Source of the DNA: Psammoneis japonica
Lineage: Eukaryota
Direction of reading: 5' to 3'
Length of the DNA stretch: 35,790 nucleotides
Assembly: GCA_008632985.1 (NCBI GenBank)
Contig: QPGO01000245.1
Span: 62,001-97,790 of the forward strand
Below the pieces are notes generated by a model. The model was not told the DNA's origin. It searched no databases and worked only from the letters and a program-made list of their open reading frames with translations. Within the stretch, counting starts at the first letter, position 1. Each line of letters starts with the position of its first letter. The position numbers were made by a program, and so were the translations under genes. Below are positions 8,901 to 35,790 of the stretch, piece by piece.

Positions 8901-11096
8901 TGCCAAGTCATTGGGGCACCATCATAGCTTCACTTTGCTCGTTGCACTCAGCCCCAGCTGCAGTGTGTTGAGGATTTCTGCCGGTGAGCACCAAGTTGTG
9001 TCTGCTGTCTGCGCAGCTCTTCCTTGTTGCTCTGTGAATGCAACAGCTTTGTCTCTTGCAAAAAACTGCAGAGGGTCACTTGGATGCCATGCTTGCTGAA
9101 GAGCCGGTGGCAATTTGCTTGTTGGAGAGAAAATTGGGTGCTCTGCATGCACCTGACTCTAGGACCTGGGCTGCATGACCAGAAGTTGCAACCAAGTCTT
9201 TGGTGACAGAAAACTCATTTGCTGTTGAGACTTTGTGCAAAGGTCAGTGCAGATGATTAACTCCACATTGCAGCAACTGTGTGGTTGCCAAGAACAGCCA
9301 TGCAGACTTGCTCAACAGCTCACGGCAGGAAAGCTTGACAAGGCTGCAAGCCACCAAAAAATTGTGTGGCGTGCAATTGGCCAAGCTCAGTCTGTTTCCA
9401 ACAAAGAGAGACTTGTTTCAAAATGCCAACGCAAATTTCTCTGCATTCTCCTCAAGCCATTTTGCCACTGCAAAACAACTCCACATCTTTGGCATTCCCA
9501 GTGCATTGTGTGTTGAAGCTTTGCTCACACCCACCACTGCCACTCAGTGACCAAACCATTGGACAAGTCACTCTGGAGTTTGGAAATTCAAGTCTGCTGC
9601 TGTTGGGGACAAGGTGATGCACAGGGCCACAACCACAGCAACAAGATCAACCTTTCCATGCTCAGCCACAGCTCTCAAAGTCTTGCCTGGGATCTTCCAG
9701 ATGCCACCAGCATCCTCAACCTGTTTTGGGGGGTTGATTGGCACTGTCATGGGGTCCTTTCACTCTGGAGTTTGGAAACCCAAGTCTGCCACTGCTGTTG
9801 TGAACAAGGTGACATGGGGCCACAGTGCCACAACATCAGCCTTGCAGCGCCAACCAAAGTTCTCTCAAAGTCCCACCTGGGGCTCATTGTCCTCTGCTTG
9901 CAGTTGTTGTTGGGTTGGCTGGTGCCATCATGTGATCTTTGCACACTCTGGAGTTGGGAAAGTCAAGTGTGCTCTCACACCTGCTGTTGGGGACAAGGTG
10001 ACATGGGGCCACAGCACCACAAGATCAACCTTTCAATGCCCAGCCACAGCCCTTTGGGTGTTGTCTGGGATCTGCCCAACACCAGCACCAGCACCAGCAC
10101 CCTCAGTTTGCAGCTGTCATGTTTGTTGGCACCATCACAGGGTCTTGCAATGCCCAGCCATCACAGCTCTTAAAGTGTCACCTGGTGTCTGCCAGATGCT
10201 GCCAGTGTCCTCAGCTTGCAACTTGTGATGCAGCAAAACCGCTGGCTTCTGAAGCAGAGTGTTGTGCACTGTGGCTGCACAAATCTCAGCTGGAACATGG
10301 TCCACAAGTTCTCTTTTTTCTGGCACTGCCTCGCTGCATTTCTACAAACTTGACTTTTGAAATGGCCTCATCTTGCAAGACTGCCACAAAGGACAGTCCT
10401 GCCAGGCAACCCTGCAGAGTCAAGGCGATGCCCTCCCCCTCTGGCTTTGTGGCTGCCAGCAGAGGCTGACTGCCTCTTGTCAACTGATGCCCTGCACTGG
10501 GCAGCCCTGTCCAATGTCCACCTTGCTTGCATTGCAAAATTCATTCTTCTTCCAACTGGCAGACACAAGTGCAAGTTTTGTGCCACTGCCTCGTTGCTGT
10601 TGTCAATTGACTTGATGCCAAAGCCCACACATCTGCCTGTCCAGTGCCACCGACACTGTTGTCCTCGGAAGCAAATGCAAGCTTGTTCTTGCTGCCACCG
10701 AGAAACTCTGTTTTGTTCAAGTCATCATTCTCAAGTCTGGTGGCAGGAGCACCTGTTGGACAACCAGATGCCGATGCCACTAACACCTCATCAGCAGCAC
10801 ACAAAAACTGAAATTGACAGTCTTCACTTTTCTCACTCTCGCCAAATTATGATCTGCTTTTCTACTTCTTCTGGACTTCAATCTTGTCAAACCAATCTTA
10901 CCAAGTCAATCTTACCAAATTGATCTTGTCAAATCGCCGCCGCTTCTCAGCCATTCGATTCATCGATCTTGTTCCTCAAGATCGATTGCGGCATTCGTGG
11001 TCGGCTCCGATTTCTGTGGTCATCGGTGGCACGACCCTTCACTCGTGACCGGGACCCAATCACTTGAGTCCCGCTTGAGTCATGTTCCGCGACAAG
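5966..11096. other. TpA- and CpG-depleted, TG/CA-rich decayed repeat block 1
   Basis: TA is nearly absent throughout and CG is scarce in the core (~6150-10930). Contains the 190-bp unit array and Tyr-poor spurious ORFs on both strands. Confidence 0.85.
9569..10222 (+). repeat. Diverged tandem array of ~185-190-bp units (about 3.5 copies)
   Basis: cactctggagtt..gaaa..caagt...ctgctgttg.g.acaaggtga...gggccaca recurs at 9569, 9761 and 9944. The same family occurs at 31261-32160. Confidence 0.85.
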
Positions 11097-17774: not shown

Positions 17775-18695
17775 TTACAGTTTCAAGGCCTGCATCTTCT
17801 GCACGAGCTCAAGCATTTTGGTTTCCATTTCCTTGGCGTCTTTTTTTGCCTGAACGTGGTTTCGAAATGCGTTCTGAATCTTTTTCGCCGCGACTTCCCT
17901 GAGTCCACGTTGGAGCTTGAGACGATTTGCCATTCCTTGAAGAGAAGTGCTGCCATACTGTCGTAGTTCCTCCTGGAGCTTGAGGTGGCGATTCAATACT
18001 TCGATTTTGCGTTCACGTTGGAGCTTGAGACGATTCACCATTCCTTGAAGAGAAGTGCTGCCATACTGTCGTAGTTCCTCCTGGAGCTTGAGGTGGCGAT
18101 TCAATACGTCGATTTTGCGTTCACGTTGGAGCTTGAGACGATTCACCATTCCTTGAAGAGAAGTGCTGCCATACTGTCGTAGTTCCTCCTGGAGCTTGAG
18201 GTGGCGATTCAATACTTCGATTTTGCGTTCACGTTGGAGCTTGAGACGATTCACCATTCCTTGAAGAGAAGTGCTGCCATACTGTCGAAGTTCCTCCTGG
18301 AGCTTGAGGTGGCGATTCAATACTTCGATTTTGCGTTCACGTTGGAGCTTGGTCGCAAGCTTCTCTTTCAAAAACCAACCTCGGATGACGGTATAAATGG
18401 TAGAAAGGACGGGAAGGCGAATGGTCGCACTAGTCTTCTTCAAAAACCAAACTTGGATGACAGCATGAACGGTAGAAAGGATGGGAAGGCGAATGGATAG
18501 ACCTTTCATGAAGAACGCTTTTACTTTTGAGACTTTCGAAACGACGCGTCGGAAAATCAAGAAAACCAGGACGGCCAAGCTCTTCGTCAAAACGAAGACG
18601 CAGAACAAAGCGAGAGGGATTTCCATGCCAATAGAAGCAACAAGAACCGCCATAATGGCGATCTTGAGCATAGCGAAGAGAAGGTAAGCAGTCAT
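17775..18695 (-). CDS. Hypothetical membrane-anchored protein with four 36-aa coiled-coil repeats and an IQ-like motif
   Basis: Open frame (ORF track 17775-18722, first ATG at 18695). Hydrophobic N-terminus, 2x 24-aa repeat, 4x KLQRERKIEVLNRHLKLQEELRQYGSTSLQGMVNRL, then AAKKIQNAFRNH. Confidence 0.6.
   Translation of the reverse strand: MTAYLLFAMLKIAIMAVLVASIGMEIPLALFCVFVLTKSLAVLVFLIFRRVVSKVSKVKAFFMKGLSIRLPILSTVHAVIQVWFLKKTSATIRLPVLSTIYTVIRGWFLKEKLATKLQRERKIEVLNRHLKLQEELRQYGSTSLQGMVNRLKLQRERKIEVLNRHLKLQEELRQYGSTSLQGMVNRLKLQRERKIDVLNRHLKLQEELRQYGSTSLQGMVNRLKLQRERKIEVLNRHLKLQEELRQYGSTSLQGMANRLKLQRGLREVAAKKIQNAFRNHVQAKKDAKEMETKMLELVQKMQALKL
17906..18351. repeat. Near-perfect 108-bp coding tandem repeat, ~4.1 copies
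   Basis: ttcacgttggagctt recurs at 18012, 18120, 18228 and 18336 (period 108). Confidence 0.95.
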
Positions 18696-19548
18696 GGTGA
18701 CAATACTTGCTCTATCGATCACAACAACAGAGAAAGTGAGACGATTTCTGTTCTGATCAGCGTGCAGCGTGGACGTGGATCGAGCAGGAGACCTTCGTTG
18801 GTTTGACGTCTGTTCTATTTAAAAAAACATATGTCCATTAATATAGTTATATTCCGTTGTCCAAACCGTGCTCATTGGCCACGATTGCTCTCAGTTTGGC
18901 CCAAAGTGAAGAATACAATGATCAATGAACATATAGATATATTTAACAAACAAACTACACTCTTCTGATACTGGAACTAAATTGCATCGATTTTGGTCGG
19001 ATGAGTCAGATGTCGCATCATTCATTGTTGCGGTGTAACTGCTACACGGCATGATGAGATTCGCGATGCCGACATCCCCTCTCTAGAGCACCACTCTAGC
19101 TAGCTAGAGAGAAGTTGAAAGCTGAGCATTGCCACAGCTGTTTGAGAAAGGCTGCGTCATTTACCCCCCTGTGTTTCGATGATCGACGCAGCAGTCCAGT
19201 CTCTTGATGCATGTGAGGACGCATGAGTTGCCGCTGGATGATTTGGCCGAAACCCAGTGCAACAAGTGCCAGCATCTTGACGATGAAGAAACAGATGACG
19301 AAGATGCTGCTCATGCTGCTGCTGCGTTTGACAGTCTCCCAATGGAGTTGTTGAAAGATGAAATTTGCCGGATGGAGAGAGTCAGATGCAATGTGCGCTG
19401 CTTGTCAAATCTGGGCGATCATCATCCATCCTCTGGGCTCGGCGCAAAAGTGCAAAGACCTGCTTCATGTTGTGCCAGCATCTAGACACAAGAACAAAAA
19501 AGCCATGGGAAAGGCAAGAGGTCAGATGCACAACACGAGAGCAAGTGG

Positions 19549-20867
19549 GATGTGTTTTCATCCCAGGTGAGAAACTTTTGGACACATCACGAGGTTTTCT
19601 ACGTGTTTCTACATGAGACACACATTTAGCACCAAAAATCTTAGTAAAAAACGAGCTCCATGACAGCAAAAATATATTTTTCCATGTCTCGAACCACAAA
19701 CCACAATTCGCGCAAACCGAAAATGGCACCATGCCGTCGCCATGAACTCGTCCATTCTTGCACCAACGGATGTTGTGACTGAGAAGGCAAGAATGCCGAG
19801 ACAGGTCAATGAGACAACGCTCAATGCGATGATGTGGTTGAAAATTTGATCTTTGTTTTTTGTTGTGCCTCATGGACAGCCTTTTGACTCATGACATTTT
19901 TGATGCCTCTTTCTCTCTTCCTCAGCTTGCGAAGCAGGATTCTCATCAACGCGCTGCTCCATCTGCTTGACACCAGATGCTGACAACGAAGAATGTTTCC
20001 ATGACACGTTGCTGTGATTCTTACAATGTGTCGTCCGCACTTTGAGTCGTCATGGACGACGCTTTTTTGGGTCGTGCGACAACATCAGATTTCGCCACCG
20101 ACAAGAGAATCGTTGTGTGTTCGGTTTTGAGGGTGTGTGAGGATAAAGAATCTCAGATGCAAGTGTGACAGTTTCATCATTGTAAAGTGGAACAATGCCA
20201 TTAGCGACATCTCAGTGTTGCAGCCATTTTATTTCATTCTAAGATAGAACTGGTCATTTTGAGCGGTGAAATTTTGTCAACATTTCATCTTTAACTCTGC
20301 TTGGGCACATCAAATCACATGACAACTGGACACACATTGAACTTTGACGCTGCTGTTTCAATCCTGTTGTTTTATTCACTCAAGCATCCCACACAGGTCG
20401 ACAAATCAGTCGATCTTTGAAATGGCCGATCGCGCAAAAAAATCACGTGCGAAGTCAGTTCCCCCGATTTTTCTCATGCAAACAACGGAGTTAGAATGCC
20501 GTTCTTTTTTGGCATGAGCTCTTCACACAATGAACAATGCGTGCATTCTTTCAAAGCAGTCAGATTCGGTGAAAGAAACAGTGGAGTGGTCTCTCAAATG
20601 CACCAGAATGACAACAACGAGCAGATGGCTGTCAGTTTCACTCCAAAAAATGCCGCTTTCGAGACAGCGCTTTTCTTGCACGCACCCTTCAACCAATGAG
20701 AATGACGGCTGGCTTTTCAAAATAAACATGTCTGTGGAAAGAAGAAACGAAAAATCGGGGGAAAGTCCAGTCAGATTTGCTCGCACAAAAAGCACGGCGA
20801 CGGAAAAGGGACAGACGAAACGTCTCACCTCCGCATGCGCGTTTCTCACCTGGGATGAAAACACATC
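19549..20867. mobile_element. Non-autonomous TIR DNA transposon, 1319 bp, 27-bp perfect TIRs, 4-bp TSD (GTGG)
   Basis: gatgtgttttcatcccaggtgagaaac (19549-19575) is the exact reverse complement of 20841-20867. GTGG lies at 19545-19548 and 20868-20871. An uninterrupted homologue of the flanks lies at 33196-33360. No recognisable transposase. Confidence 0.9.
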
Positions 20868-21801
20868 GTGGCTTGCACAGCAAACAACAAACTGGCACTT
20901 TCCTTTTGAGCTTTCTTTGTTTTTTTTTGAAACTCAGACAAGTTGACAAAAACAGCTGAGGAGGATGAGAAACAAAGTGCTGCAATGTTGCACACCATCA
21001 GAGGCTGCAATGTGGTGGTTTCCACTTTCCTTTGTAATTTTTTAATGTGCATTGTTAAAAGTGGTGACAAGGAGAATGTTCAAACAATGCCAGCAAAAGT
21101 GCCCAACAAAATGCAGCTGTTTTGTGCATTCATCTGATGTCTCATGAACTTTTCTTGCACAAGCTTCAATCAAATGCATGCAATGTTTAATTTAATTGGG
21201 GTTGAAATCTGTGTTTTGTGGTGCATGGTTTGGTTTCCTTTTGACTGCAATCAATTTGAACTTGGTTCTAACTTTGTCCTCCTTGCTCACATGCCTCTGT
21301 CTTTGCATGTGTGCAGTCTGCTGTGCATGCAGTGCTTCATGCTCACACGTGAACCACCTTCATTTTTCTTCATGTTTCCCAGATTTGCACAGCCTGTTGA
21401 TCTGCGGTGTTTTCAGCATGTTTTTGCATGCGCAATTTTCTGCACACTTCACAACAGTGCACCCTCTCCCCAAAATTTGAAAACAAGAGCGTGCACTTTT
21501 GTGATTCAGTGGATCCTGCTTGTGGTTGCAAATCTGCAAATTGGCAACCAGCCATGGCAGTGAAAGACTTTGCCCCATTGGCAGATGACAGCAGCTCAAT
21601 GTGTGGTGAAACCTGCTGTCCTTCTGGCTGGTCAAGATGGGTTTTGATTTGGGCGCAGCTTGAGTTTTGTGATTGCGAGTGTGCTGTCATGAATCTGCCG
21701 CATCCAGAATGCTGAGCTGCTGTTGTGTTGTTGTGTGCATGCATGTCACAAAATTGCTTTTCTGTGGCATTGGTGCAATCGTGTGTGTCAGAGTTTTGCA
21801 T

Positions 21802-22114
21802 CCAGAATCATCACAAGTTGCCGCAAATGACACTCTTCAAACAAGGCATGCACAAAAAGAGGTTCATTGGGGTTTTTGATGTGCTTGCTGACAATGCATC
21901 CATCTTCTCCAATTTCCGCATCTAGATCAAGAAAGACTGCAGGTGGTGCTTGTTCCTGCAGCTCTCAGAATCACATGCATAAAAAGTTCTTTGTGCCACA
22001 TGTGGCACTCTTCAAAAAAGGCATGCACAAAAAAAGCTCTGTTGGTTTTTGATGTGTTCACTTGTGTTGCATCCATCTTCTCCAATTTCTGTGTCCAGAT
22101 CCAGAAAGACTGCA
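21802..22114 (+). repeat. Two diverged ~172-bp tandem units
   Basis: cactcttcaaa.aaggcatgcacaaaaa...tttttgatgtg...tgcatccatcttctccaatttc...agaaagactgcag occurs twice. Confidence 0.85.
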
Positions 22115-22431
22115 GAGGCAGAGAGTGAGGAAGCAACCCCACTGGAGGTTGCCTGGGTTGTTGGGCTTGTTTTTAAAGGCTTCCCAAGTCTCTCCACTGT
22201 TTCTGGTCCCCACTGCAAACACATGTCATTGATGAACCATCCACAGCACAGGAGGTGCGGGGTGAACTTGGTCATTGCCACATGACTTTGTCATTCATGC
22301 AGTGCCTTGCACAGTGTGGCACACATGCAGGCCATGATTGTTCCCACAGCTGATCCCAGCAAGTGCGCTCTGTGGCACCCAAGATGTTTTTTGCTTGCTC
22401 ACATGCTTTTTTCTGTGTTTTCTTTGAGTTG

Positions 22432-22992
22432 CAGGGGTGGAGCTGGGTGCTCGATGTCTTGCACCTCACACCAGCTTCCACATTTGCTTCAGAATCAGTG
22501 GCCCCGGATGCACCAATGCACCGGCAAGTGTGTGTTGTGGTTCATTTTAGTTCATCTACATTGTGCTCTCACAATGTGCTCCATGCTTTTCAGCAATGAA
22601 CAAGGTGGATCAGAGCAACAGCACTTCTGCTGCAAACTTGCCTGCTCCAGAATCAGTGGTGTTGGACACACTGGTGAGTCCATGTTGCCGTTCCTGTGGG
22701 TTGTGTTGGTTCATCTGTGTTGCACTCTCACAACATGTTCCACTCTTTTTGGCAATGAATGAGGTGGAGAACAGAGCAGCGGCACTTCAAGAATGGAGCA
22801 GCAGCTCCTGCTGCAAACTTGCCTGCTCCAGAATCAGTGGCACTGGATGCACCAGTGAGTCTGTGTTGCCCCTGTTCCTGTTGGCAATGTTGGTTCATCC
22901 ACATTGTGCTCTCACAATGCATTCTGCACTTTTTTGGCAATGAAAAAGGCTTCAAGAAAGTGAGCTGCAACTGCTGCTGCAAACTCCAGGGT
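22432..22992 (+). repeat. Dispersed repeat copy A, made of three ~160-bp subunits
   Basis: Colinear with 26667-27254. Subunit contains cagaatcag...gttcatc...ctctcacaa...gcaatgaa; both copies end at ctgcaaactccagggt. Confidence 0.9.
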
Positions 22993-22994
22993 TC

Positions 22995-23861
22995 CAGCGA
23001 CTGCCTCCAGAGATTGGGTGTTTGACAAAACTCAAAGTGTTGAACCTTGGATGTTGTAAGAGACTGACTGAGTTGCCTGATGAGATGGGACAATTGACAA
23101 GCTTGAAGGAATTGCAATTGAGCAACTGCTTGAAGCTTGAATGATTGCCTCATGGTTTGATTCGGCTGTTGCATCTAGAGCAGTTGAAATTGGGCAATTG
23201 CATTTCCCTCACTCAGCTGCCCCCGGGAATTGGACAGTTGCATCAGTTGGAGGTCCTCAACCTTGATTGTTGTTTCAGTCTTGCTGAAATTCCTGTTGAG
23301 ATTGGTCAGCTGTCCAAGCTGAAAACTCTCTCCTTGCGTGGCATTTTGCATTGCACACGAGAATTCTTGGAAAGCATTTGCACAAGCAGTCTGTCGAATC
23401 TGACAAACTTGGATTTGTGCAGTTGTTGTGGTCTTGCAGAGCTGCCTCCTGCAATGGGATCGCTTCGAAACCCAGAGGAGCTGGATGTGGATGGCTGTAC
23501 AAATTTGACTCACATTAGCAAAGAGGTTCTATCACTGCCGAGTCTCAAAAGTCTCGGATTGCGGGGTTGCACTGTGCTCACCATTTCACCCAAAGAAATC
23601 CGCGAGGCTTCGTATTCGGTTCAAAACGTGTACATGTCCGCCCGTGCATCCCAAGATGAAATAGACTGCTACTGTGAAATGAACAAGGCCGGACGACACC
23701 TGCTGCGTCGAGAAAATGGAATTCCTGACGCTCTCTGGCCGCACGTCGTGGAGGGTCGTCGGAGCGACGATAACTTTGTGTTTTGGTTCTTGAAGCACAA
23801 CCCGAACTTTGTCAAGAAAGGAGTTGGAAAAAGAGGAACCAGGAGAGCTCGCGAGGAATAG
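22995..23861 (+). pseudogene. 5-prime-truncated leucine-rich repeat protein pseudogene
   Basis: Frame reads QRLPPEIGCLTKLKVLNLGCCKRLTELPDEMGQLTSLKELQLSNCLKLE*LPHGL..., with plant-NLR-like ~24-aa LRRs and an in-frame TGA at 23142-23144. Ends with NKAGRHLL...ALWPHVV...VFWFLK and starts right after repeat copy A. Confidence 0.85.
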
Positions 23862-24807
23862 TAAGTTTTTGTGGATGTTTTGAAAACATGTAGTGGTCTC
23901 AGTACGATGACGGTAGATGTTGTGTAGACTAGCGCCATGTAGCTTGCTATAGACGAACTAGCTAGACCCAATGACTTTCCTCATTGATGCCATTCAGATT
24001 GTAGCTGTGCTCTTTGTATTCAACCAATACTTTGCCCAATGCAACCATTTTTCCGTGAGAAGTTGACGTATCGTATTGCCATCCAACAAAAGAACACACT
24101 ACTTCAAACACTTGCTACGGGTATATCGCACGGACCTCTCATTGTCTCGTCGGCCCGAAAGCCACGTTGCGTTTCCCGACTAGTGTGTGTCTCCGCAGGG
24201 ACGTTGTTTCACGGTAAGAATGGTTCGGAAATGATCCAGGTCAGGGCACGATAGCCGCAAAATCACTAGTGCGTAAGTTGTGTAGTAAATGCGTAGCGAT
24301 AGTGCCGTAGATGCACTCTATACTATCCTTTAAGTTTTTGATGGACGCCATTCAAACGGTAGCTATGCGCCTTCTTACATATCAGATGCCTTGGTCAAGC
24401 AGAGAGCTACTTACTTGGGAACTTTCCTTTTCTTGAATCTTGCGCCGCCTCTTTCGACGATTGGACAAATCCTATCTACAGTACAGATTCATCCAAGCGT
24501 ATACGGTATGTCAACTCGTGATGAAAGCTGCTGTGAGCATTTGTAGCGATTTATTTCAATCACAAATAGATTACCTGGGCAGAGTTAGGGAACAAGACTT
24601 CAAGCTTAACGCTCTTACGTACGAGATGAGACTATCCCAACGATACCAGCTCATGTACACCACTGTAAAAACCGATACGGCCTTTTAAAATGAAAAATTC
24701 CAAAAGGAGCGTAATAAACTCTGTTGTTTGCAATGAAGAGGTAGTATTTCCTTTCATGACAGGCTTCAAGCTCATACATAAGAGCGGCCCACAACTACGG
24801 CTCCTCG

Positions 24808-26559
24808 TCATCGCTTTAGTCGACCAAAATTCAACGCGACAAACAAAGTAACCATTAAAAAGACCGACAAGATCCAAAACGTGGGATACGCCCACTCTTC
24901 CGATAATTCTGGCATGTGAGTAAAATTCATTCCGTACACCCCCGTCAAGAATTGTGCGGGCAAAAACACGGCTGAAATGACAGTTAGAGCGTACAGGGTG
25001 GAATCCATTTGCTGCGACTGGAACTTGTCAGCATCGGAATCGACAGACTCGCAATCCACAATAAGTTGCTTGACCTCTTCGTCGGCGCTCTCCAAGTTAT
25101 CAAGCACATCTCGGAGGTACACGGTAACTCCGTCCTTAATGGCGTCGTCTTCAATCATGTGCGTTAGTAGTCTCGTAAAGGGCTTGAGTCTCCGACCCAT
25201 CTTTTCCAGTTCGCTCCTGAGCTTGTGAATGCGCTTGAGGTTTCGATAGCTATTTTTCTTTTCTAAAAAATCCCTTTCTTGCTCGATTTCATGTCTCATC
25301 TTTTTCACAATGGGATGGATCAAATCCACAGCTTCGTCCAGGAGAGCATAAGTCAGATATTGCGCATCGTATTGTCTCAATTTGGAGTAACTCTTTTCCA
25401 GCTCGTGTTGAACCCGTTGCCAAAGATGGTGCTTGAACCTACTACTGCTCATGTCTGAAGTTGCAGCATGGACGCCATTGTTGGTAAAGGTAATGATTGT
25501 GTCGTCTTTGGGAACATTGACAAAGATACTAACCAGTCTCACGCGTATACTGGTAATGTGCTTGATTCGAGGCTTGTCTCTTATCGTTTCACTACGATTG
25601 GATGGATCCTTTTTGCATTTTTGAAACCACCTACGGATCAATACAGGAAAAAAGCATAGAATCGCCTCGACTGTTTTCCGAAAGGATGACGCAGCACCAG
25701 GGCTAGGGTTTCGTTCCAACGTGGTCCATTCCAAATCAAACACAGGAATCATGATAAAGTAGTGATTGGAATACAATTCTGCCTTGGGTCTTTGAATTTC
25801 CGGTGACAGGGCATCCTCAAGTGCTAATGGATGCAATAGATACTTGATGGCCAAGCGCTTCATGTCCATGGCGGATGCTGCCACCGGCGAAGATGGGTAC
25901 ACATTGATCCATCGAGTCTTGACCCAATCCGCTCTCCTTTGAAAATAAAAATCCCTCGAGTCCATGGTTTCTTGCTGCTGACAATTTCGTAGAGGAGCAC
26001 CTCGATTGAAAACGAGCTTTCGTTCAAACTGAATCGGCTCATAGTCAATCACCTCGAGCGATGGCTCCTCGGGCGGTCCTTCCTCCGACGAGGAACGAAG
26101 AACGATGTTTCGAAGCATAAGAAGACGTATTCCCTCGGAAAATTCTTCAAACGAAATGTCACCGCTCCCATCCAAATCAAGATACTTGACAAGCTGCTGA
26201 AAGCTCGTTTCATCCAACAAGGAAGAATCATGAAGGCCTGCGGTGTGAAACTCGATTCCGTTTCGTAAGGTTTCATACGATATTCTCCCGTCCTTGTCGG
26301 CATCAAACATATCAAAGACGTATTGGAGTCGCTCGGCTGTTAGATCGAGAATGGATTCAAATATGGATTCTTCACCATTCTCATCGCTTATGATTTGTTC
26401 CGACGTGTCGTTATTACTTCCAAGAATCACGTCGGACGATGCGACTGCTGGGTTGACAACTCCCACATGAGAAAGAAAACTTTGCAACGTATCGGGTAAT
26501 CGAGCGGATCCCTCTTCAGCCTGGAGGGTTTCTTCAGCAACAAACTCTCTAGTTGACAT
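24808..26559 (-). CDS. CorA-family Mg2+/divalent cation transporter with N-terminal EF-hand pair
   Basis: Intact 583-aa ORF. EF loops DADKDGRISYE and DLDGSGDISFEE; CorA hallmarks LHPLALED, QRPKAE, YLRDVLDNL, TM1 FLPAQFLTGVYGMNF and MPEL, then TM2. Confidence 0.92.
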   Translation of the reverse strand: MSTREFVAEETLQAEEGSARLPDTLQSFLSHVGVVNPAVASSDVILGSNNDTSEQIISDENGEESIFESILDLTAERLQYVFDMFDADKDGRISYETLRNGIEFHTAGLHDSSLLDETSFQQLVKYLDLDGSGDISFEEFSEGIRLLMLRNIVLRSSSEEGPPEEPSLEVIDYEPIQFERKLVFNRGAPLRNCQQQETMDSRDFYFQRRADWVKTRWINVYPSSPVAASAMDMKRLAIKYLLHPLALEDALSPEIQRPKAELYSNHYFIMIPVFDLEWTTLERNPSPGAASSFRKTVEAILCFFPVLIRRWFQKCKKDPSNRSETIRDKPRIKHITSIRVRLVSIFVNVPKDDTIITFTNNGVHAATSDMSSSRFKHHLWQRVQHELEKSYSKLRQYDAQYLTYALLDEAVDLIHPIVKKMRHEIEQERDFLEKKNSYRNLKRIHKLRSELEKMGRRLKPFTRLLTHMIEDDAIKDGVTVYLRDVLDNLESADEEVKQLIVDCESVDSDADKFQSQQMDSTLYALTVISAVFLPAQFLTGVYGMNFTHMPELSEEWAYPTFWILSVFLMVTLFVALNFGRLKR

Positions 26560-26666
26560 GGCTTATAATCATAATGTGTTGTGCATCGTCGCCATATTCA
26601 CGATGTTGTGCCTCCGCACTCTCCCCATCGCCATCGTCGTGTTCTCGTTTCTCTCGTGATTTTTTT

Positions 26667-27254
26667 CAGGGGTGCGTGCGTGGAGCTGGGTGCTCAACGT
26701 CTTGCACCGTGCACCGGCGTCCACATTGCTCCGGAATCAGCGGCGCCGGACACACCGATGCACCGGCAAGTGTGTGTTGTGGTTCAGGTTAGTTCATCTA
26801 CATTGTGCTCTCACAATGTGCTCTACACTTTTCGGCAATGAATGAGGTGGATCAGAGCAACAGCACTTCTGCTGCAAACTCGCCTGCTCCAGAATCAGCC
26901 ACGTTGGATGCACTGTCAAGTCCATGTTGCATTCCCACAGGTTGTGTTGGTTCATCTGTTTTGTGCTCTCACAATGTGCTCCATGCTTTTTGGCAATGAA
27001 TGAGGTGGAACAGAGCAGCGGCACTTCAAACAATGGAACAGCAGCTCCTGCTACAAACTTGCCTGCTCCAGACTCCAGAATCAGCTGTGCCGGATGCACC
27101 GGCAAGTCTGCATTGCCGCTCCTGTTGGCAGCGACAGTTCACCCACATTGTGCTCTCACAATGCATTCTGCACTTTCTTGGCAGTGAACAAGGTGGCTGC
27201 CAGCAGCAGCACTTCAAAAAAGTGAGCTGCAACTGCTGCTGCAAACTCCAGGGT
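26667..27254 (+). repeat. Dispersed repeat copy B (three ~160-bp subunits), more CpG kept at its left end
   Basis: Direct homologue of 22432-22992; many differences are CG/TG/CA/TA interchanges. Confidence 0.9.
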
Positions 27255-27631
27255 GTTGTCTCTGTCAGCATCATTTGACACAAATGCAAACAACAAAATG
27301 GAGCGTTCATGGTGCAACGCAAAGATTTTAATTTGCAGGTTTTGTGGGGACAGAGGGTGGGCTCTCTCAAGGAGAAAACGTGCCCCTGTTTCATGGTGAA
27401 GCATGATTTCCTCACAGGGAGGGAGGGTCTAATCCCATGGCATAAAAATGTTCATCAATCACAGTTGACATGTTGTTGCCAACTGCAGCCACAACTGTCA
27501 AGGTTTGAAACAACAAAATTTTGCACTGTGACAGATTAAAAAATCACTGGGAGAAAGGTGATCTGGATCACCACAATGCACGCTCTGATGACAAGCAAGC
27601 AGAAGCAGCATCATTGTGCTGCATGGCAAAT

Positions 27632-27873
27632 CTGAAAACTTCTCTGCCATCTTCTGCCAGGGATTTTTGTCATGTCTCACAATGAAAAGCTCCTGTGTCT
27701 CACAAAAACTGACTCTCCAGCCAGACAATGGGGTGGTGGCTCTCAAAGAGCAGAGGGAGCAAAGGCAATGGAATGACAACATGCTGGAACAAGAGCATGC
27801 ACCAAAAGTCAAACATTTTGCCAGCAGGGCAGAAAGCAAACATCACATTGTGAAGGCCAAAATTGCAAAATGC
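27632..27873 (+). repeat. Dispersed repeat, homologous to 33415-33701
   Basis: Shared aacttctctgc...tgccagggatt...gggtggtggctc...gagcaaaggca.tgga.tgacaacatg...cagggcagaaagcaaacatca...ccaaaattgcaaaatgc. Confidence 0.8.
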
Positions 27874-29661
27874 TCTGCTTCACATGGAGCAATGTGTCAT
27901 GTCTTCAAGATCATAGCACTTTTGTCATGGTTTTGTGCTTGAACCCATGTGCCCCACAATGGCAAGTGACCCATTGGATCACAGCATGCTGGGGCTCAAT
28001 CTCAGAGTTGTTGAGCTTGCGTGTGAGGACAGTGTGGCCATGCTGCAGTCTCTGCACATTGTGGATGAATGCGCGCAGCTGACATCTCAAGTTTGGCATC
28101 ATTGTTGCTCAAGTTGAGGACTGAAGTTGTGAGCCAGTGGCCAGGAGATGGCTTCTCTGTGTCCAGAATCTGGCACCAATTCTGTCACTTGGGGCAACTG
28201 TTCTCAAGGTTGGGATCAGATGAAGGCATGGTCTGCCACATGTGCTGGTGACAGGTTTGCCACCTTGTGCAGGCAAAAAGGTGTGATCACAACAGATCCA
28301 GACAAGATGATGCCCACAGTGAGTGGCAAATTGTCCAAGCCAGTCACAGCAGGGAGGGTCTGCATCCATTGCCACAAGAGGAGCTCCTGGTGAGTTGCTT
28401 GAAGCAGCATTCTCCAAGTCAGTTGTGGACAGGGGTCTTGGAAACAGGGGAGCTGTCATGTGTTCTGATGCAGGCAGCAGACCTGGGATGCATGCTGGAG
28501 TTGAGACCCAGAGAAGCTCAAGGTAAAAACCTTGAAATGCAGCCTCACTTGATGTGAAGAGAAAAGTTTGTTCCTGTGTCTGGCTCCAGGGTGCCACCCA
28601 CTGAACATGCAGTTCAAAAGAAGAGCAGTGGGTTTTTTGCCTCTGGCAAAGTGTCACACACACCTCCCAGACATGCTGTGAAACACACCCCATTGCCATT
28701 AAAAAATGGGGGGTCACAAGTCAGCAGCACACACCAGGGGAAATGGAGGTCAGCCAGCTGGAGGCCAGTGGTCAAAAGTGCTGCACTTGCAAGAGTTTTT
28801 GGACAGAGATCAGGCACACACATGTCATCCAAGTCTTCTGTGAGCACAACATGCATGATTTCCATGGTCTGTTCCTGCACTTTGTTGCAAATGGAAGCCT
28901 GCAACTCAGGAACAAGTTGTGTGGCATCATCAAAGCTGTGTGGCAGGGTTGAAAGTTGTGGGGCACCAGGATGTCTGGGTCAGAAGTCAAGTTCAGGATG
29001 AGCCCCAAGACACTTTCTTTGCACAAGCAAAGCTCAGCACAGCTTGGGGAATCATCTGGCTGGTGCATTTCCCCCATGTTCAAACTTGCTGTCCTCAAAA
29101 TCTTGAGAGTTGTCTCCCAGGAGGGGCTCCAGAATTCTTGCAAAGCTGGCTCCTCCAGGTTCTCTGGAAATTGTCCTGTCACTGTCAATGTGCCCTCCAA
29201 GTGTGCTGATCACTGCCCTCTCTTGGCTTCAGTGCAGAGTCATTTTTCCAGAAATCTTGAGCAGTTTCTTGCAGCAAAAAGCAACTTGCCATTGCAAAAA
29301 AGAAGATTCTCTCTGGTTGATGTTGCAAGACTCAGTCATGTGGAGCTGCACATCAGCTGCCCTCAATTCTCTCTCCACAGCCTGCAAACTCAACACCAGG
29401 TTGGGCTGCAAACTGCAAGCAAGCAACGCCAGGCAGAGAAAGCCTCCTTTTGGGGGTGAAGAAAAAAGGATTGGCAAGATCCCCAGCTGTGCAAGATGCA
29501 AACACCCACACACAAGCTCTTCCAGATGGAAAATGCAATGCCAGACAGTTGCCAGCAAGCTGCCTTTCCATTGTGGTTGCCCTGTGGGCACAAAGCTTTC
29601 TGCTCATCAAATCTTCCAGCAAAAACGTCTGTGTGCACACTTCTGCTGCATGTGCAGCACA

Positions 29662-31194
29662 GCTGGAGCCTGGCAACCTGGACACTGGCTGGGCTGAGCA
29701 TCTGCCCTTGAGTGCTCTCAAAAATCAACTGGGTGCCAGATGGTGCTCACACAAAAGAGCGCTCCTCTGTTGGCAAACATGCCAAGGAGCAAAGGGCCCA
29801 GCCCCAACAGCAAGCTGAGCAACAGAAGAGCTCTCAGACCAGAGTGTGATGAGAAGGAAATGTTGAGTCAAAAGCATTGCTCACCTTTTGGAGCAATGCT
29901 CATTTTCAAAGCACTGGCATTGTGTGAGCAGGTGCTGTCTGCAAGTCACAAGGGCCTGCACCATCCTCTGCTCTGTCAGCTGTGAAGCTGATGCTGAATC
30001 AGGAGTTGGTTGTTTTTTGTGCCAAAGGATGCCAGCTGACTTTTTGCATGTCCAATGCTGGCTGCACTCAGTGTGGCAAATTGAGAGGTGAAAGCAATGT
30101 TGTTCCAACCATCAGTCATTGTGCTTTTCACTGATGAAGAAGACCAGCACTGAGGCTCTGCTGCAGCTGTGCTCTTCACAGCTTTGTCATGTCCAAAGCT
30201 CAAAGGACTCTGCCAGGCTCCTTGAGCTTCAATGTTGGGGGATCTTCTCAACTGCACAACAAGTGAGAGAAAGTTGGCACTGACAACATGCTGAAAACAA
30301 GCTGCTGATGGACAACCCCATGAGCTTCAAGCAGCAATGGGCACACTTCTTGATCCCAGGAAAAGTGAAAAAGTGTGCTCTGTCACAAGCACTGGCTTTT
30401 TGGCATGCACTGACAGTGGAAAAGAAAAAGAAAAAGCAAGAAGCACACAGACAAGGAGAGCCAAGAAAAATTGCTTTGTCTTTTTGCTGAGCAACAAAAG
30501 CTCTGGCTTGCCCAAAGCTTGGCAAGCAAAAAATCACAAATGAGAAAAAAAGAGTTTTGTGACACAAAAGAGCTGGCAGAGAAAAAAGGATGGTGAGCAG
30601 GCCTTTGGACACAGTGGGGCAATTTTTGGAAAAAAGACAGCACCCCCACAGCAAGGCCGCCCCACATGTGTGCAAGTGAGTGCTTGGGCCATGGGTGCAC
30701 ATGCTGCATGCTGTGCAGAGTTTGCATGGCAGCATGATCACAGGGAAAAAGCTCCCCTCCTTGCCCCCACTGCATGATCTAAAGGCCTGATGGCAAGCAA
30801 GAGATTCCTGGCTGGAGCCTGGCAACCTTGATGCTGGCCAGGCTGAGCAGCTGCCCTTGAGTGCTCAAAGATCAGCTGGGTGCCAGAAGGCACTTGCACA
30901 AAAGAGCGCTCCTCTGCCAGCAAACAGGCTGAGGTGCAAAGGGCCCAGAGCCCCAAAAGCAAGCCAAGCAATGTCTGGCAGAAGGGCTCTCAGACCAGTG
31001 TGCAACAAAGAAATGTTGGACCAAAATCATTGTTCACTTTTAAAAGAGCAATGCTTGTTGGCAAAAGCACTGACATTGTGGGAGCAGGTGTGCAACCACA
31101 GCTTTTTCCAACACGTCTCATCTGTCCTCTGCCATGAAGCCAATGCTGAATCACAAGTTGGTTGCTTTTTTTGTTGAAGGATGCCAGTTGACTT
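29662..31194 (+). repeat. Diverged ~380-bp direct repeat pair (29662-30042 and 30811-31194)
   Basis: gctggagcctggcaacct...ctgcccttgagtgctc...acaaaagagcgctcctctg...ctctcagaccag...ggatgccag.tgact in both copies, with many TG<->CA swaps. Confidence 0.85.
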
Positions 31195-31260
31195 GTCAAA
31201 ATGTCTGATTTCTGTGTTGCGCATTCCAAATGATCACAAAAGCCAATGCAATTTTTCCAA

Positions 31261-32160
31261 TCATGGAGCACTGTGGCTGGGCATTGCAAGGTTGATCTTC
31301 TGGTGTTGCTGTGGCCCCATGTCACCTTGTCCACAACAGCAGCAGGTTTGATTTTCAGACTCCAGAGTGCAAGGACCTCATGCCAGCACCAACCATCCTC
31401 ACATGCAACAGGTGGTGTCTGGTGGGTCCCAGGCAACAATTCAAGAACTGAGGTTGGGTGCTGTTGCAAGGCAATTCTTGTGGTGTTGTGCCCCTTGTCA
31501 CCTGGTCTTCAACAGCAGCAGAGAGACTTTGGCTTCCAAACTCCAGTTGCAAGCTACAAGCTGAGTGTGCTGGCAGTCTCTGGTGGGCCCCAGGCATGAC
31601 TTTAAGAACTGTGATTGAGCACTCTTGCAAGGTTGCTTTTGCAGTGTTGTGGCCCCATGTTGGTGCTGTCATGGGATCCTTGCACTCTGGAGCTGGGAAA
31701 GTCAAGTCTGCTCCCTGCTGCCAGGGACAAATTAAAGAACTGCCTGGGATCTCCAGACACCACCAATGCCCTCAGCTTGCAGCTGTTGAGTTGATGAGTT
31801 GTTGCCACCATGTGGGGTCATTTCACTCTGGAGTTTGAAAGCTCAAGCATGCTGGCACTGTTGGGGACAAGGTGACATCATGGGGCCACAATGCCCCACA
31901 ACATCAATCTTGTTGCAGCACCCAGCTGCAGTTCTCAGGGTGTCACCTGGGATCCACAATGAAATGCTGCCAGTGCCCTCAGCTTGCTGTTGTCAGGTTT
32001 TTTGGCACCATCACAGGGGTTCCTTCATTCTGGTGCTGGGAGTTTGCAAATGTTGAAGTGTGCACCTCTGGCTGGCTGGGAGAACAAGATGGGGTTGCCA
32101 CAACTGTGCAACTCACTGACCCTGCACTGCTCAGTGCTCAACCACAGTTCTCAACATGTC
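31261..32160. repeat. 190-bp unit family: inverted units (31261-~31660) followed by direct units (~31660-32160)
   Basis: gtggccccatgtcaccttgtcc...ctccagagtg (31311-31369) is the reverse complement of the 9569-10222 unit. Forward cactctggag occurs at 31683 and 31824. Confidence 0.8.
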
Positions 32161-32446
32161 ATCAAGTCTGTGCCAAGCTGCTGGAAACAAGGCAACATGG
32201 AGCCACAACAGCACATGACAACAGCACTGGCAAGGGCAACACTGGCTCATTGGGGACAAGGGGTGCCAGCAGGGGGGGCACTGCTGCTCTGGCTCTTTGC
32301 AGACACACATCCAGTGCCGTGGCCATGCTGGCCCGGTCAACCTCTTGCTCAACCAGCTCCCTTTCTACAACCACCTGCATGACAACTCCATGACCTCTTC
32401 TAACCTCCTGCCTGCAAGTTTCAACCACAGCGACAATGCAACAGCA

Positions 32447-32828
32447 GCAGCAACAAAGGGTGTTGTGCATGTGTGGGCTGGACTGCTGCAAAGATCAGCT
32501 TCAACAGCAGCCCCCCCAGATGCAAACAAACAAGCTGTGTGGAGCAGTGCAAATGCAAAAGTTTCATTCTTGGCAAGAGCCAGCTGACACAACAAAAGCT
32601 GAGATCTCAACCTTCTTTGTGCACGATTTGGTTCACGTGCAGCTGGAACACGTCTGCAGCAACAAAGGGTGTTGTGCATGTGTGGGCTGGACTGCTGCAA
32701 AGATCAGCTTCAACAGCAGCCCCCCCAGATGCAAACAAACAAGCTGTGTGGAGCAGTGCAAATGCAAAAGTTTCATTCTTGGCAAGAGCCAGCTGACACA
32801 ACAAAAGCTGAGATCTCAACCTTCTTTG
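32447..32828 (+). repeat. Identical 173-bp direct duplication (32447-32619, 32656-32828) with a 36-bp spacer
   Basis: Base-for-base identical on manual comparison. Confidence 0.95.
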
Positions 32829-33195
32829 ACAACAGATGCAACTGCACCTGATTGAAGCAATGTTCAACATGTCCAGCTGCCAGACAATCAGGAGCTCACA
32901 CACAGCACCAGGAGCAATGAAAACCAATGGAGCAATTCATTTCAGTTGATTCAAACAATTTAAACTGCTTTCAAGAGCCAATGCTTTGAAATGCTTTTAA
33001 AGAAAGATCCTTGCAAAATGACACAGGCAATGATTGCCAAGCTGACTGGCTTGGCCCCATGGCAAAAAGGCACATTGCTGCCACACAAAACAACACAAAA
33101 AAAAAACACCAGATCACACCCAAGCAGCTTATGAACAATGACAACATTGAAGGAAGGTGCCAACAAACCCAGGACTCTGCATGTGACAACAAAGA

Positions 33196-33360
33196 AAAGC
33201 CCAGGGAAAGGCAAGAGGTCAGATGTGTGACACAAGAGCAGGCAGCTTGTGCAGCAAACAACAAGCCAATGCTTTCCTTTGCACTTTCTTTGTCTCTTGA
33301 AACTCACACAAGCCAGCAAAAACAGCCAGAGACAAGAAACAAATGCTGCAAAATTGCACA
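33196..33360 (+). repeat. Uninterrupted (empty-site) homologue of the repeat split by the TIR element at 19549-20867
   Basis: gggaaaggcaagaggtcagatg...gagca matches 19507-19543 and runs directly into cttg..cagcaaacaacaa...ttgaaactca.acaag, which matches 20872-20995. Confidence 0.85.
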
Positions 33361-34110
33361 CAGGCAAGCAGAAACAGCAGCATTGTGCCATGCTTGCCAA
33401 AGAAATGTGTCAAACTGACAACTTCTCTGCACTGTTTTTTGCCAGGGATTGTGCTGTCATGCCTCACAGTGAAAAGAGGGGTGGAGCATGACTTGATGCC
33501 AGCACAGCAAAAAATGCCAAGAAGCAAGATGGGTTGCAAGAAGAGACAATGGGACAGATGGCAGGGTGGTGGCTCAAAAAGCATGGAGAGAGCAAAGGCA
33601 GTGGAGTGACAACATGGGCTGAGAGCATGTGCCAAACAACAAACACTGCCAGGGCAGAAAGCAAACATCAGCACACGCTGGAAACCAAAATTGCAAAATG
33701 CAAGCAAATTGACAAACAAATCAAATCAAATGCTGGCATGATCCAGTCAACAACAAACAACAACAATTGAGATCCACAACTCAGGTGTGTGTGCACAGAA
33801 ATGAGCCATGTTGCACTTGTTGTTGTTTCCCACTTTGTTGATTTGGTTGACAACTGACAACCCAGCATTCACAACATTGTTGCACAGCTGTTGGGTTCAA
33901 GCTGATCATGTCAAGAGCCTGCACATTGTGAGACCAAATTTCCTCAAGTCTGGTTTCCCACTTTGCTGATTTGGCCAATTGTGAAAATCCATTTGCTCAC
34001 AATGAAGAAGCACCATTTGACAAGAGCACAAGCTTCTTGTCAAGCAAGTTTCAACTCTGAACAAGAGCAGCTGCATTTTTGTCAGACAGCTGTCAAGAGT
34101 GCAGCACCCA

Positions 34111-34549
34111 TGAGCAGTGATCACCTCCATTTTGTGGGAAAAAACTGTCAAACATTTAAGTGGACAGACATGTTTCAATGGTCACATCTCTGCTGCAAAC
34201 CCTGTCATCCGAGCAAACCCTCAGTGCCTTGCCCCCCCTTTTTGCATGTGAGAAATTTGGTTCTGCCATGTGTTTTCCCCAGAAACTCGTGCTCAGTCAT
34301 TTGGCATGGACTTGGCACGAATTCCACATGGAATTTGCACCAAGTCTGTGCCATTTCTCTCAGACCGCATTTTCCGACAAAGAGAATGAGTGAAACGAAT
34401 TCCTTGCACAACACACAAAAAGGGGGGGTGAGGCACAGAGGGTTTGTTCAGATGACAGGGTTTGCGGCGGAGACATGATCATTGAAACACATCCATTCAC
34501 TCAATTGTTTGACATTTTTTCCCCACAAAATGGAGGTGATCACTGCTTG
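34111..34549. mobile_element. Foldback/MITE-like palindromic element (~440 bp)
   Basis: ~140-bp outer arms (agcagtgatcacctccattttgtggg... / ...ccccacaaaatggaggtgatcactgct) plus an inner 52-bp palindrome at 34302-34353 on nearly the same axis. No TSD identified. Confidence 0.75.
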
Positions 34550-35268
34550 TCCTTGGCTGTGCCCACACGAGTGGAAGACTTGTGCTGCAGCCCCAACCAC
34601 TGCCCCCCCTCCCTGCAGGCTCAAGGCACCCTGAGACACATGTGGGCATGACTCCTGCAACCAATTTGGTGGCAACAAAGTTCCCTGAGGAGGTGCTCAG
34701 CATCTGGGGTGCCACACATGACAAAGCTGGCTGGCAATGAGAAATGATGACACTGGACTTCCATGCACCACTGCTCTTTGCCTGTGCTGGTGCTGCTCAA
34801 TGGGGGGTCACAAGATGACTCAGCAAAACTTTGCACTCTTGTCTTTGCCAGCTTTTTGACCTGGTCTTCAGGGAGCTTTCATTTTGAAACATCAAACCTG
34901 AGGACTTCACTCTCAGCATTGCCCACACTTCTGGCAACAGAACAGCACCAACAGAGTCTCTGTGCATGAACATCAGAAGGCAGCAGACCAAGTTTGTGCT
35001 GGAGGGTCTGCATGTGTCAACTCCAGCTGTGAAGGACAAGTGTTTTGTTTGCTGGCAATGAGGAGCTTGGGAGGCATTCATCTGGACAGAGTGTCAGCCC
35101 CACACCAAACCCCCCCCCCCCCCCCCCCAACACGTGTCAGACTGTGGCTCCTGCACTTCAGCTCAACCATTTGCAGACTCTGTGTTCCACATGGAGCAAT
35201 GTGTCATGGCTCCAAGATCAGAACAGGAGGTGATCACTGCTTGTCCTCGCCCGTTTCTTTGAAATGAC

Positions 35269-35400
35269 TAGAGACTACCGGGTAGGATAACTTTCTCTAC
35301 TCTATGTAGCTCTAGAGAGCTAGAGAGTTGGAGTAGCTACAGGCTAGCTCTAGCGTAGAGTTTACCGTAACTACTAGAGAAGTAGCTTTAGTATATAGAG
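35269..35400. other. TA-rich (CTAG/GTAG/CTAC) low-complexity tract at the edge of block 3
   Basis: About 23 TA dinucleotides in ~130 bp. Confidence 0.7.
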
Positions 35401-35790
35401 AGAGGATCTATCAAACAAACATACATCTCGATCGTCTGGCCAAAAGCCATGGTGAGGACTTGTCCGGTGCCGGGGCCATCACAGTTGGCTTCTTTGTCCT
35501 CCCGCCAACAGGTAAATCTGCCTTGGTGCTGCGGTCGACCGTATTACGAGCGCAAAGTTTCCACCCTCAGCAGTTGTCACCGTTTCTTCCTGCTTGTATA
35601 AGTTACAATCTCTCCCACCACAGCACAGAGTGTTGAGAAGAAGGCACAGCCGAGACTGACTTCTTCTAGTTGGACAAGTTTTTATGATGGCAGAATTTTC
35701 GCAAAACCCCATAAGCGATAGCAAAGTGACAAATAGCGTCCACTGCGTCCGTCGCAGCAGCTCCACGGAGGTCAACTTCGAGCCACTCTT

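Follow-up and report, generated by a model that had tools for sequence, protein, structure and literature searches.

Flank-selective loss of TpA, beside a separable loss of CpG, in repeat-derived blocks of a Psammoneis japonica contig

The stretch of Psammoneis japonica DNA analysed here, referred to as the window, comprises 35,790 nucleotides of contig QPGO01000245.1 (GenBank assembly GCA_008632985.1, positions 62,001 to 97,790 of the forward strand) and contains three blocks of repeat-derived DNA in which the dinucleotide TpA (TA) is nearly erased. The loss depends strongly on the bases that flank the dinucleotide: TA within TTAA often persists, whereas TA preceded by a purine and followed by a pyrimidine (RTAY, where R is a purine and Y a pyrimidine) has almost vanished. 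A mutational process that is directed at TpA and discriminates between flanks is very probably at work. The explanation that we favour, and regard as probable, is that the blocks have been exposed to two transition processes that are close to completion, one converting TpA to CpA or TpG and the other converting CpG (CG) to TpG or CpA, and that the flank bias at TA reflects the substrate preference of the first, perhaps an adenine deamination. All statistics refer to this one 35.8-kb window, in the blocks of which 65 TA sites survive in total.

The extent of the blocks was determined in bins of 200 bp. Block 1 (6001-10800) is depleted of both TA and CG and shows the same flank bias as the others. 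Block 2 (19201-23400) is depleted of TA throughout, but of CG only in 21001-23400. Block 3 (26601-35268), which contains the segment 27300-35267 where the bias was first noticed, has lost almost all of both dinucleotides. Altogether, 65 TA are present in 17,600 bp of blocks, compared with 778 in the 18,190 bp of gene islands that make up the remainder, and 92 CG are present in 15,400 bp of blocks, compared with 1007 in the islands. TA stands at 0-11% of expectation in the blocks and CG at 3-29%, whereas CA/TG reaches 1.6-2.3 times expectation; the GC content is near 50% (0.45-0.54). The observed/expected (O/E) ratio of TA in the islands is 0.5-0.85. Within 27001-35000, 19 TA and 35 CG are observed, where approximately 508 and 481, respectively, are expected from base composition. 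The longest run free of TA measures 2080 bp (28700-30780), whereas TA sites in the islands are spaced at a median of 13 bp. Block 3 ends sharply on the right: a final TA-free run (34157-35269) gives way to sequence with a TA approximately every 6 bases. TA-dense stretches rich in CTAG or CTAGAG adjoin two of the block edges on the outside (19084-19105 and 35269-35400) and may belong to a separate element that is not mutated, or be a feature of the boundary itself. A run of approximately 18 C is also found close to the right edge of block 3, at 35112-35129.

Loss of TA is not always accompanied by loss of CG. The region 19201-21000 contains 19 TA but 75 CG, which is near the normal CG content, and TA is likewise lost with CG near normal in 6001-6200 and 26601-26800, the latter holding 19 CG in its 200 bp and only 2 TA. 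In these TA-only zones, even TCG is not depleted (62 of 216 strand-symmetrised CG counts, compared with 606 of 2014 in the islands, as summed by hand). Because the TA-only zones keep CG near normal, TA loss and CG loss are two separable processes, and the erasure of TA either precedes that of CpG or runs independently of it. The CpG loss has flank preferences of its own. Among the CpG sites that survive where CG is depleted (6201-10800, 21001-23400 and 26801-35200), GCGC is over-represented 3.2-fold, CCGG 2.8-fold and CCGC/GCGG 1.6-fold, whereas ACGA/TCGT (0.53) and TCGA (0.26) are under-represented. This pattern fits a CpG loss that is faster in AT-type surroundings, especially at TCG, and to which GCGC and CCGG are least sensitive.

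The flanks of the surviving TA sites carry the main finding. According to the original prediction, most TA sites left in 27300-35267 carry T on the 5′ side or A on the 3′ side, which implied a symmetric target VTAB (V, not T; B, not A). The count was reproduced exactly: the 18 sites are TTAA (nine), CTAA (three), CTAC (two) and one each of ATAA, GTAA, TTAT and ATAG, so that 15 have at least one of the two flanks and the three exceptions are, as had been stated, ATAG at 27914 and CTAC at 31555 and 32366. At the first of these exceptions, the contig of a public DNA run reads CA in place of TA (T>C, at a depth of 62.1 of 62.1). Fisher tests with the 778 gene-island TA as reference give p=2.6e-4 for a 5′ T or 3′ A in this segment (15/18 compared with 298/778) and p=3.4e-7 for TTAA (9/18 compared with 43/778). 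For the three blocks together, 47 of 65 sites have a 5′ T or a 3′ A (p=1.3e-7), 17 of 65 are TTAA (p=4.6e-7) and only 2 of 65 are RTAY, compared with 236 of 778 in the islands (p=9e-8).

The bias is present in each block, with a 5′ T or a 3′ A at 8/11, 23/32 and 16/22 of the sites in blocks 1, 2 and 3, respectively, and the earlier claim that block 1 shares it is borne out. The 11 survivors of block 1 are eight YTAR, three mixed and no RTAY; the 32 of block 2 are 16 YTAR, 14 mixed and two RTAY; and the 22 of block 3 include nine TTAA, located at 27329, 27537, 28700, 31041, 31603, 31733, 32961, 32998 and 34157. The bias extends beyond the immediate neighbours, in that A occupies position +2 at 57% and position +3 at 41% of the surviving sites, compared with 27% in the islands. 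The survivors are typically junctions between a T-tract and an A-tract, and the exceptional CTAC sites read CTACA in eight of nine cases.

To express these counts as survival, the number of ancestral TA in each flank class was estimated as the number of xYRy sites in the blocks multiplied by the TA share among xYRy in the islands. Survival is highest for TTAA (0.57), followed by CTAA/TTAG (0.30), and is low for ATAA/TTAT (0.09), CTAC/GTAG (0.07, or 9 of 122 expected), GTAA/TTAC (0.06), CTAG (0.06), ATAT (0.05) and ATAG/CTAT (0.04); no site is left of the 128 expected for ATAC/GTAT or of the 71 expected for GTAC. When grouped, VTAB retains 18 of approximately 506 sites, contexts with one protective flank 30 of approximately 242, and TTAA 17 of approximately 30. 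A model with the same survival in every class is rejected (deviance 91.3, df 9, p=9e-16). The NTAN classes are thus not equally depleted when blocks and islands of the window are compared, and the view that the process is context-selective, rather than drift, is upheld by this strong flank dependence.

The form of the rule differs from the one first proposed. VTAB is indeed the most depleted group, and a two-class model built on it is better than the null (likelihood-ratio p=2.7e-8), but its Akaike information criterion (AIC) of 291.8 is far from that of a model with separate effects for each flank (260.3), which is the best of five parametric models. The saturated model with ten classes gives 261.1, and a purine/pyrimidine rule, in which Y before and R after protect, gives 263.9. 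Nor is VTAB a uniform class: survival ranges from 0 to 0.07 within it and from 0.06 (GTAA) to 0.57 (TTAA) within the class supposed to be protected. A single T or A flank protects only if the other flank is also of the Y/R type, since ATAA/TTAT (9%) and GTAA/TTAC (6%) survive at much the same rate as CTAC/GTAG of the VTAB class (7%). In the per-flank model, a 3′ A adds 1.69 and a 3′ G 1.16 to log survival relative to C or T (0), with the 5′ base taken as its complement. If each strand is instead treated as attacked separately, the additive exposures in the deep zones are 0.27 for a following A, 1.27 for G, 2.52 for C and 2.76 for T; this per-strand model describes the deep zones adequately (deviance 8.0, df 6, p=0.24), in contrast to the flat model (83.3, p=4e-14). 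The ranking is not produced by mutation of the flanks themselves. All changes are transitions, so that a flank remains a purine or a pyrimidine throughout, and a pyrimidine on the 5′ side is never itself part of a further TA or CG; together these two properties indicate that the order TTAA > CTAA > CTAG is not a flank-mutation artefact.

The blocks are repeat-derived DNA that was mutated after copying. Their edges coincide with repeat structure, and repeats occur both within and between them: tandem units of approximately 170-190 nt are common to different blocks, and the units of approximately 190 nt in block 1 are shared with 31266-32041 in both orientations. For comparison with reads, the Logan contigs of one public DNA run were used, which have a depth of approximately 60-80 in the unique parts; this run is probably the assembly's own sample. 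Among the runs listed, it is the only DNA run in which the stretch occurs, and no RNA run containing it is listed. The k-mer depth is 1579-9720 across 19188-22751 and 740-2134 over 31068-32849, compared with 60-80 in the unique parts, and the region 28098-31067 of block 3 is single-copy at a likeness of at least 90%. A second run of the sample matches, over 18000-35790, only gene islands and no depleted block, and in several places its contigs do not agree with the window; a third run matches no part of the window.

Mutated paralogues made of tandem units of approximately 170 nt lie at 22408-22992 (+) and 26648-27254 (+), and it is the left part of the second copy (26601-26800) that retains CG. 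The two are 81.6% identical over 614 columns, and their differences are mostly transitions, many of which place CA opposite TG at one and the same dinucleotide. Over the paralogue alignments, 140 YR positions read CA against TG and 895 are concordant; in addition, CG is paired with CA/TG at 59 positions and TA with CA/TG at 28, the last being few and redundant. The 140 discordances are the expected trace of an ancestral TA or CG that was resolved independently in each copy, and the transition signature between copies is clear. Within block 3, the segments 32447-32619 and 32656-32828 are a 173-nt direct duplicate of 100% identity inside hypermutated DNA; the duplication postdates the mutations. 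A 435-bp palindrome at 34113-34547, with arms that are approximately 75-85% complementary, contains an unusual local concentration of surviving CG (nine in 34201-34600).

The first part of block 2 contains a high-copy element with terminal inverted repeats (TIR) at 19549-20867. It is 1.3 kb in length, has 27-nt arms that are 100% complementary with GTGG on both outer sides, reaches a depth of 4169-9720, equivalent to approximately 100 copies, and is TA-poor but CG-rich, with a normal CG content. Differences between copies were taken from the public-run contigs, those cited here being among the 40 listed of 231 differing places; at 20096-20097, for example, other copies have TG where the window copy has CA. 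A young DNA transposon in very high copy number may be what is seen here, one whose TA is already gone and which is perhaps therefore immune.

A single rule of attack on individual strands would account for the ranking of flanks. The A of a T-A step would be readily converted before a pyrimidine, several times less readily before G and approximately ten times less readily before A, and a TA site would be lost when either of its strands is attacked. RTAY would be favourable on both strands and would be wiped out, one flank of the A or G type would slow the loss of the site, and TTAA, which presents T-A-A on both strands, would largely escape. As chemistry, a deaminase of the TadA/ADAT2 type that needs a 5′ T may convert adenine to hypoxanthine in DNA, which would be read as G. 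The CpG loss is distinct and separable from this, with flank preferences of its own. Adenine deamination as the chemistry at TpA is put forward tentatively, both the enzyme and the reaction being deduced from the pattern of substitutions. The natural tRNA substrate of TadA and ADAT2-ADAT3 has a U before the target A.

The composition of the blocks provides a further view of which base was mutated. The O/E of AT is 0.73 in the blocks (0.93 in the islands), that of GC 1.34 (1.05) and that of GA/TC 0.88 (1.13), and the share YTGY/(YTGY+YCAY) is 0.66, compared with 0.53 in the islands. When flank-blind decay of TA and CG was simulated from island sequence, the values obtained were 0.92 for AT, 1.08 for GC, 1.08 for GA and 0.52 for the YTGY share; a simulation that applied the TA rule to each strand, together with a bias of the CpG loss towards Y-C-G, gave 0.81, 1.29, 0.97 and 0.64, respectively. 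A flank-directed choice of the mutated base is thereby partly shown. The polymorphic site at 27914, which is ATAG in the window and ACAG in the public-run contig, agrees with the per-strand rule. We regard a strand-by-strand form of the TpA attack as slightly favoured overall.

Several observations weigh against the per-strand deamination reading. The CA and TG derived from CpG confound the evidence from product asymmetry, and in the TA-only zones the YTGY share (0.526) hardly differs from that of the islands (0.531), although with approximately 36 lost TA this comparison has low power. In a joint fit of the CA/TG products, per-strand attack on TA has an advantage of no more than 3.5 log-likelihood units, and the parameters fitted for CpG, in which CCG is most sensitive, contradict the surviving sites, among which CCGG is over-represented 2.8-fold. 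At 20235, other copies read TTAT where the window copy reads TCAT, which opposes the per-strand rule. When the data are pooled, the per-strand model fits imperfectly (deviance 13.9, df 6, p=0.03), nine CTAC survivors are observed where the model predicts 4.1, and the A-tract bias at +2 and +3 lies beyond the reach of a rule based on one neighbour. The survival figures use island or block-YR composition as a stand-in for the unmutated repeats, and the sample is small (65 surviving sites in one 36-kb window). Relatives of the proposed enzyme also act in other contexts: amphioxus ADAT2 is reported to prefer GAA, not T-A-Y, for adenine in DNA when expressed in E. coli (PMC10354150), and A-to-I editing of fungal mRNA is described as often falling at UAG and UAA (PMC11156358).

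The original prediction took a symmetric VTAB site as the target and read the strand symmetry of the pattern as a pointer to an enzyme or a symmetric base mark. In such a scheme the duplex would be recognised as a whole, for example by a methyltransferase that marks both strands, and mutation of the marked base would then be resolved on a random strand. The strong depletion of VTAB and the gain of the two-class model over the null suit this proposal, log-additive flank effects would also suit duplex recognition with independent contacts to each half-site, and the TA-only zones lack product asymmetry. The survivors are strand-symmetric as well (15 TTAB and 15 VTAA). However, TA is its own reverse complement, so that any process blind to strand will look symmetric, and the symmetry does not speak for a mark on both strands. 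Compared with the per-flank or R/Y models, the VTAB model is also approximately 30 AIC units worse; it leaves heterogeneity within its classes (CTAA 0.30 compared with GTAA 0.06; CTAC 9/122 compared with 0/128 for ATAC/GTAT), and a flank-blind choice of product fails to reproduce the shifts in AT, GC and GA or the YTGY excess. We know of no TpA-specific symmetric adenine mark in a eukaryote, and a symmetric site seems unlikely to be the cause.

Attack on thymine rather than adenine would leave the same record in the sequence. The T of R-T-A would be oxidised by a dioxygenase of the TET/JBP type to 5-hydroxymethyluracil or 5-formyluracil, which would pair with G and yield T to C. In sequence, A to G on one strand cannot be distinguished from T to C on the other, and a rule of "A followed by Y" amounts to one of "T preceded by R". 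Mispairing with G is a property of 5-formyluracil, and the 5-hydroxymethyluracil of dinoflagellates has been reported mainly at TpA and TpC. This explanation would still need a separate cause for the CpG process, and the sole experimental precedent for TpA hypermutation, described below, is interpreted by its authors as adenine deamination, itself a hypothesis. Oxidation of thymine appears quite improbable as the source of the pattern.

It is very unlikely that flank selectivity is absent and that the survivors are merely new mutations, products of slippage or remnants of ancestral repeats rich in TTAA and in T- or A-tracts. The A/T-tract surroundings of the survivors would be in keeping with such an origin, and AA/TT is mildly enriched in the blocks (1.25 compared with 1.14). 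Against it, YR sites with T before and A after are not enriched in the blocks (6.3%, compared with 8.8% in the islands), which indicates that no large pool of TTAA was converted, and the bias holds when the block YR sites are used as baseline. New TA made by transition would mirror the flanks of CA/TG in the deep zones, approximately 6% T_A and 23% R_Y by hand sums, whereas the 44 survivors of these zones comprise 16 TTAA (36%) and no RTAY. Slippage alters run lengths and cannot make a T-A junction. The bias also persists with either type of island bin as baseline: TTAA accounts for 6.6% of TA in TA-rich, mostly non-coding bins and for 4.2% in TA-poor bins, and p≤1e-5 in both cases.

An artefact, in which modified repeat DNA was miscalled in assembly or base calling so that TA and CG were read as CA and TG, is hardly credible. 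Modified bases do cause systematic errors in long reads, and the matching DNA run is probably from the sample of the assembly itself. However, the public-run contigs cover 27518-34070 in stretches of 495-1556 nt, each with 0-3 mismatched letters, at a depth of approximately 60-80, which argues against a base-calling artefact, although, with the sample probably the same, this agreement is not independent biology. A systematic miscall would also not produce CA against TG at 140 paralogue positions, and the sharp block edges coincide with repeat structure. Selection against UpA and CpG in RNA, of the kind seen in RNA viruses, was considered and rejected in view of the near-total depletion, the lack of coding capacity and the CA/TG discordance between paralogues.

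The closest known system is the chlorarachniophyte Bigelowiella natans. In its mutation-accumulation lines, two integrated viral regions are reported to mutate approximately 1000 times faster than the rest of the genome (bioRxiv 10.64898/2026.01.13.699255), with nearly every change an A to G or a T to C and all of them at TpA, which becomes TpG or CpA (Mettrop et al., bioRxiv 10.64898/2026.01.13.699255). The preprint also describes 124 clusters in the genome that are poor in TpA and rich in CpA and TpG, and an ADAT2-like deaminase is proposed as the agent (bioRxiv 10.64898/2026.01.13.699255). The likeness lies in the conversion of TpA to TpG/CpA, its confinement to foreign or repeat DNA and the adenine deaminase suggested to cause it. 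In the window, the substitution is seen indirectly, through TA at 0-11% of expectation, the CA/TG excess and the 28 and 140 paralogue pairs, and the confinement to repeats is seen in the sharp edges, the repeats themselves, depths up to 9720 and islands that keep their TA. In contrast, B. natans is a rhizarian, and its region derived from a nucleocytoplasmic large DNA virus is, by the preprint's account, only approximately 1.8-fold poor in TpA, far from the near-erasure in the blocks. The main text of the preprint makes no mention of flank, context, trinucleotide, CpG or diatom, while the supplementary table of its 231 de novo TpA mutations may hold flanks. When the literature on diatoms and other algae was searched for depletion or hypermutation of TpA, this preprint was the only relevant report found.

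Ascomycete repeat-induced point mutation (RIP) and the RIP-like hypermutation at TCG in certain basidiomycetes resemble the present case in being context-dependent transitions in repeats with sharp limits and spill-over (PMC2621366, PMC3318451). The basidiomycete process is described as targeting TCG (PMC2621366, PMC3318451), where the CpG loss in the window is also strongest. Although RIP is an analogue in function, its direction is the opposite: it converts CpA to TpA, with the result that TpA rises and GC falls, whereas in the blocks TpA is destroyed, CpA/TpG rises and GC is approximately 50%. The excess of TpA and the AT-rich repeats typical of fungal RIP are not seen; TpA is near absent and the GC content is 0.45-0.54. 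The decay of CpG in methylated transposons through deamination of 5-methylcytosine resembles the second process, in that CpG at 3-29% of expectation is accompanied by a reciprocal gain of TpG/CpA, including the 59 paralogue pairs of CG with CA/TG, and more CpG is lost between AT-type flanks. It explains only the CpG half, and the TpA process runs without CpG loss in the TA-only zones.

Symmetric N6-methyladenine at ApT in the context VATB occurs in ciliates, green algae and early-diverging fungi, and the original prediction drew a loose parallel with it. In both cases the dinucleotide is made of A and T, is self-complementary and shows a preference for certain flanks. However, the methylated dinucleotide is ApT and not TpA, the window shows RTAY as sensitive and YTAR, above all TTAA, as spared, and its evidence speaks for mutation, not for a mark; the parallel is an analogy only, with a different dinucleotide and a different flank rule. 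Amphioxus ADAT2 is reported to deaminate both A and C in DNA, the latter at TCG (PMC10354150), which is the most CpG-depleted context in the blocks.

The window is eukaryotic DNA, probably nuclear, and its ordinary genes resemble those of pennate diatoms, as judged from sequence likeness. A Mg transporter of the CorA type, which carries EF-hands and is encoded on the minus strand at 24808-26559, has best matches of 44-56% identity in a protein search, and every one of the named best matches is from Nitzschia, Bacillariaceae or Pseudo-nitzschia. When the same protein was compared with metagenome contigs, the 80 loci listed were distant CorA relatives at 23-32% identity and none was from a diatom; judged by identity, they are probably bacterial. 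Proteins with CRAL-TRIO domains are encoded at 1103-1978 and 2603-3619. An open reading frame (ORF) at 17775-18722 (minus strand), in an island of normal composition, contains tandem repeats of 108 nt (36 aa) that are 96-98% identical.

A leucine-rich-repeat (LRR) ORF at 22944-23858 (+) starts inside block 2 and matches Pfam LRR families with E=3e-10 and 1e-6. Its upstream sequence of approximately 600 nt is shared with 26648-27254, and both TA and CG are sparse up to approximately 23400, which suggests spill-over of the depletion into gene-like LRR sequence. In a Pfam scan of 22 stop-to-stop block ORFs of at least 120 aa and 127 of 65-119 aa, no transposon or viral domain was found, and the only matches were this LRR ORF and one at chance level. 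A protein search with the 168-aa ORF at 19385-19888 gave no match at E≤0.01.

To our knowledge, TpA-directed hypermutation of foreign DNA has previously been reported in one rhizarian alga only (bioRxiv 10.64898/2026.01.13.699255). The signature in the window is new in a second, unrelated algal lineage, where it is near completion, is accompanied by CpG erasure and provides the first flank fingerprint. This fingerprint, with TTAA spared and RTAY erased, could be compared in vitro with the preference of a candidate deaminase and looked for among the mutations recorded in Bigelowiella. The flank rule also helps to choose between an enzyme that works strand by strand and a symmetric mark, and it predicts how transposons could evade the defence; a naturally occurring deaminase that acts on adenine in genomic DNA would be attractive in practice as a base-editing tool. 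It is conceivable, though we would not yet call it likely, that diatom-like algae possess a genome defence opposite in direction to RIP, in which a DNA adenine deaminase erases the TpA of repeats in the order T-A-Y > T-A-G >> T-A-A, leaving TTAA essentially immune, beside a separable erasure of CpG. If this is true, elements could escape by purging their TA, as the TIR element at 19549-20867 may have done, and, taken with the Bigelowiella case, TpA editing would be widespread as a defence in the stramenopile-alveolate-rhizarian (SAR) supergroup and could supply natural DNA adenine deaminases.

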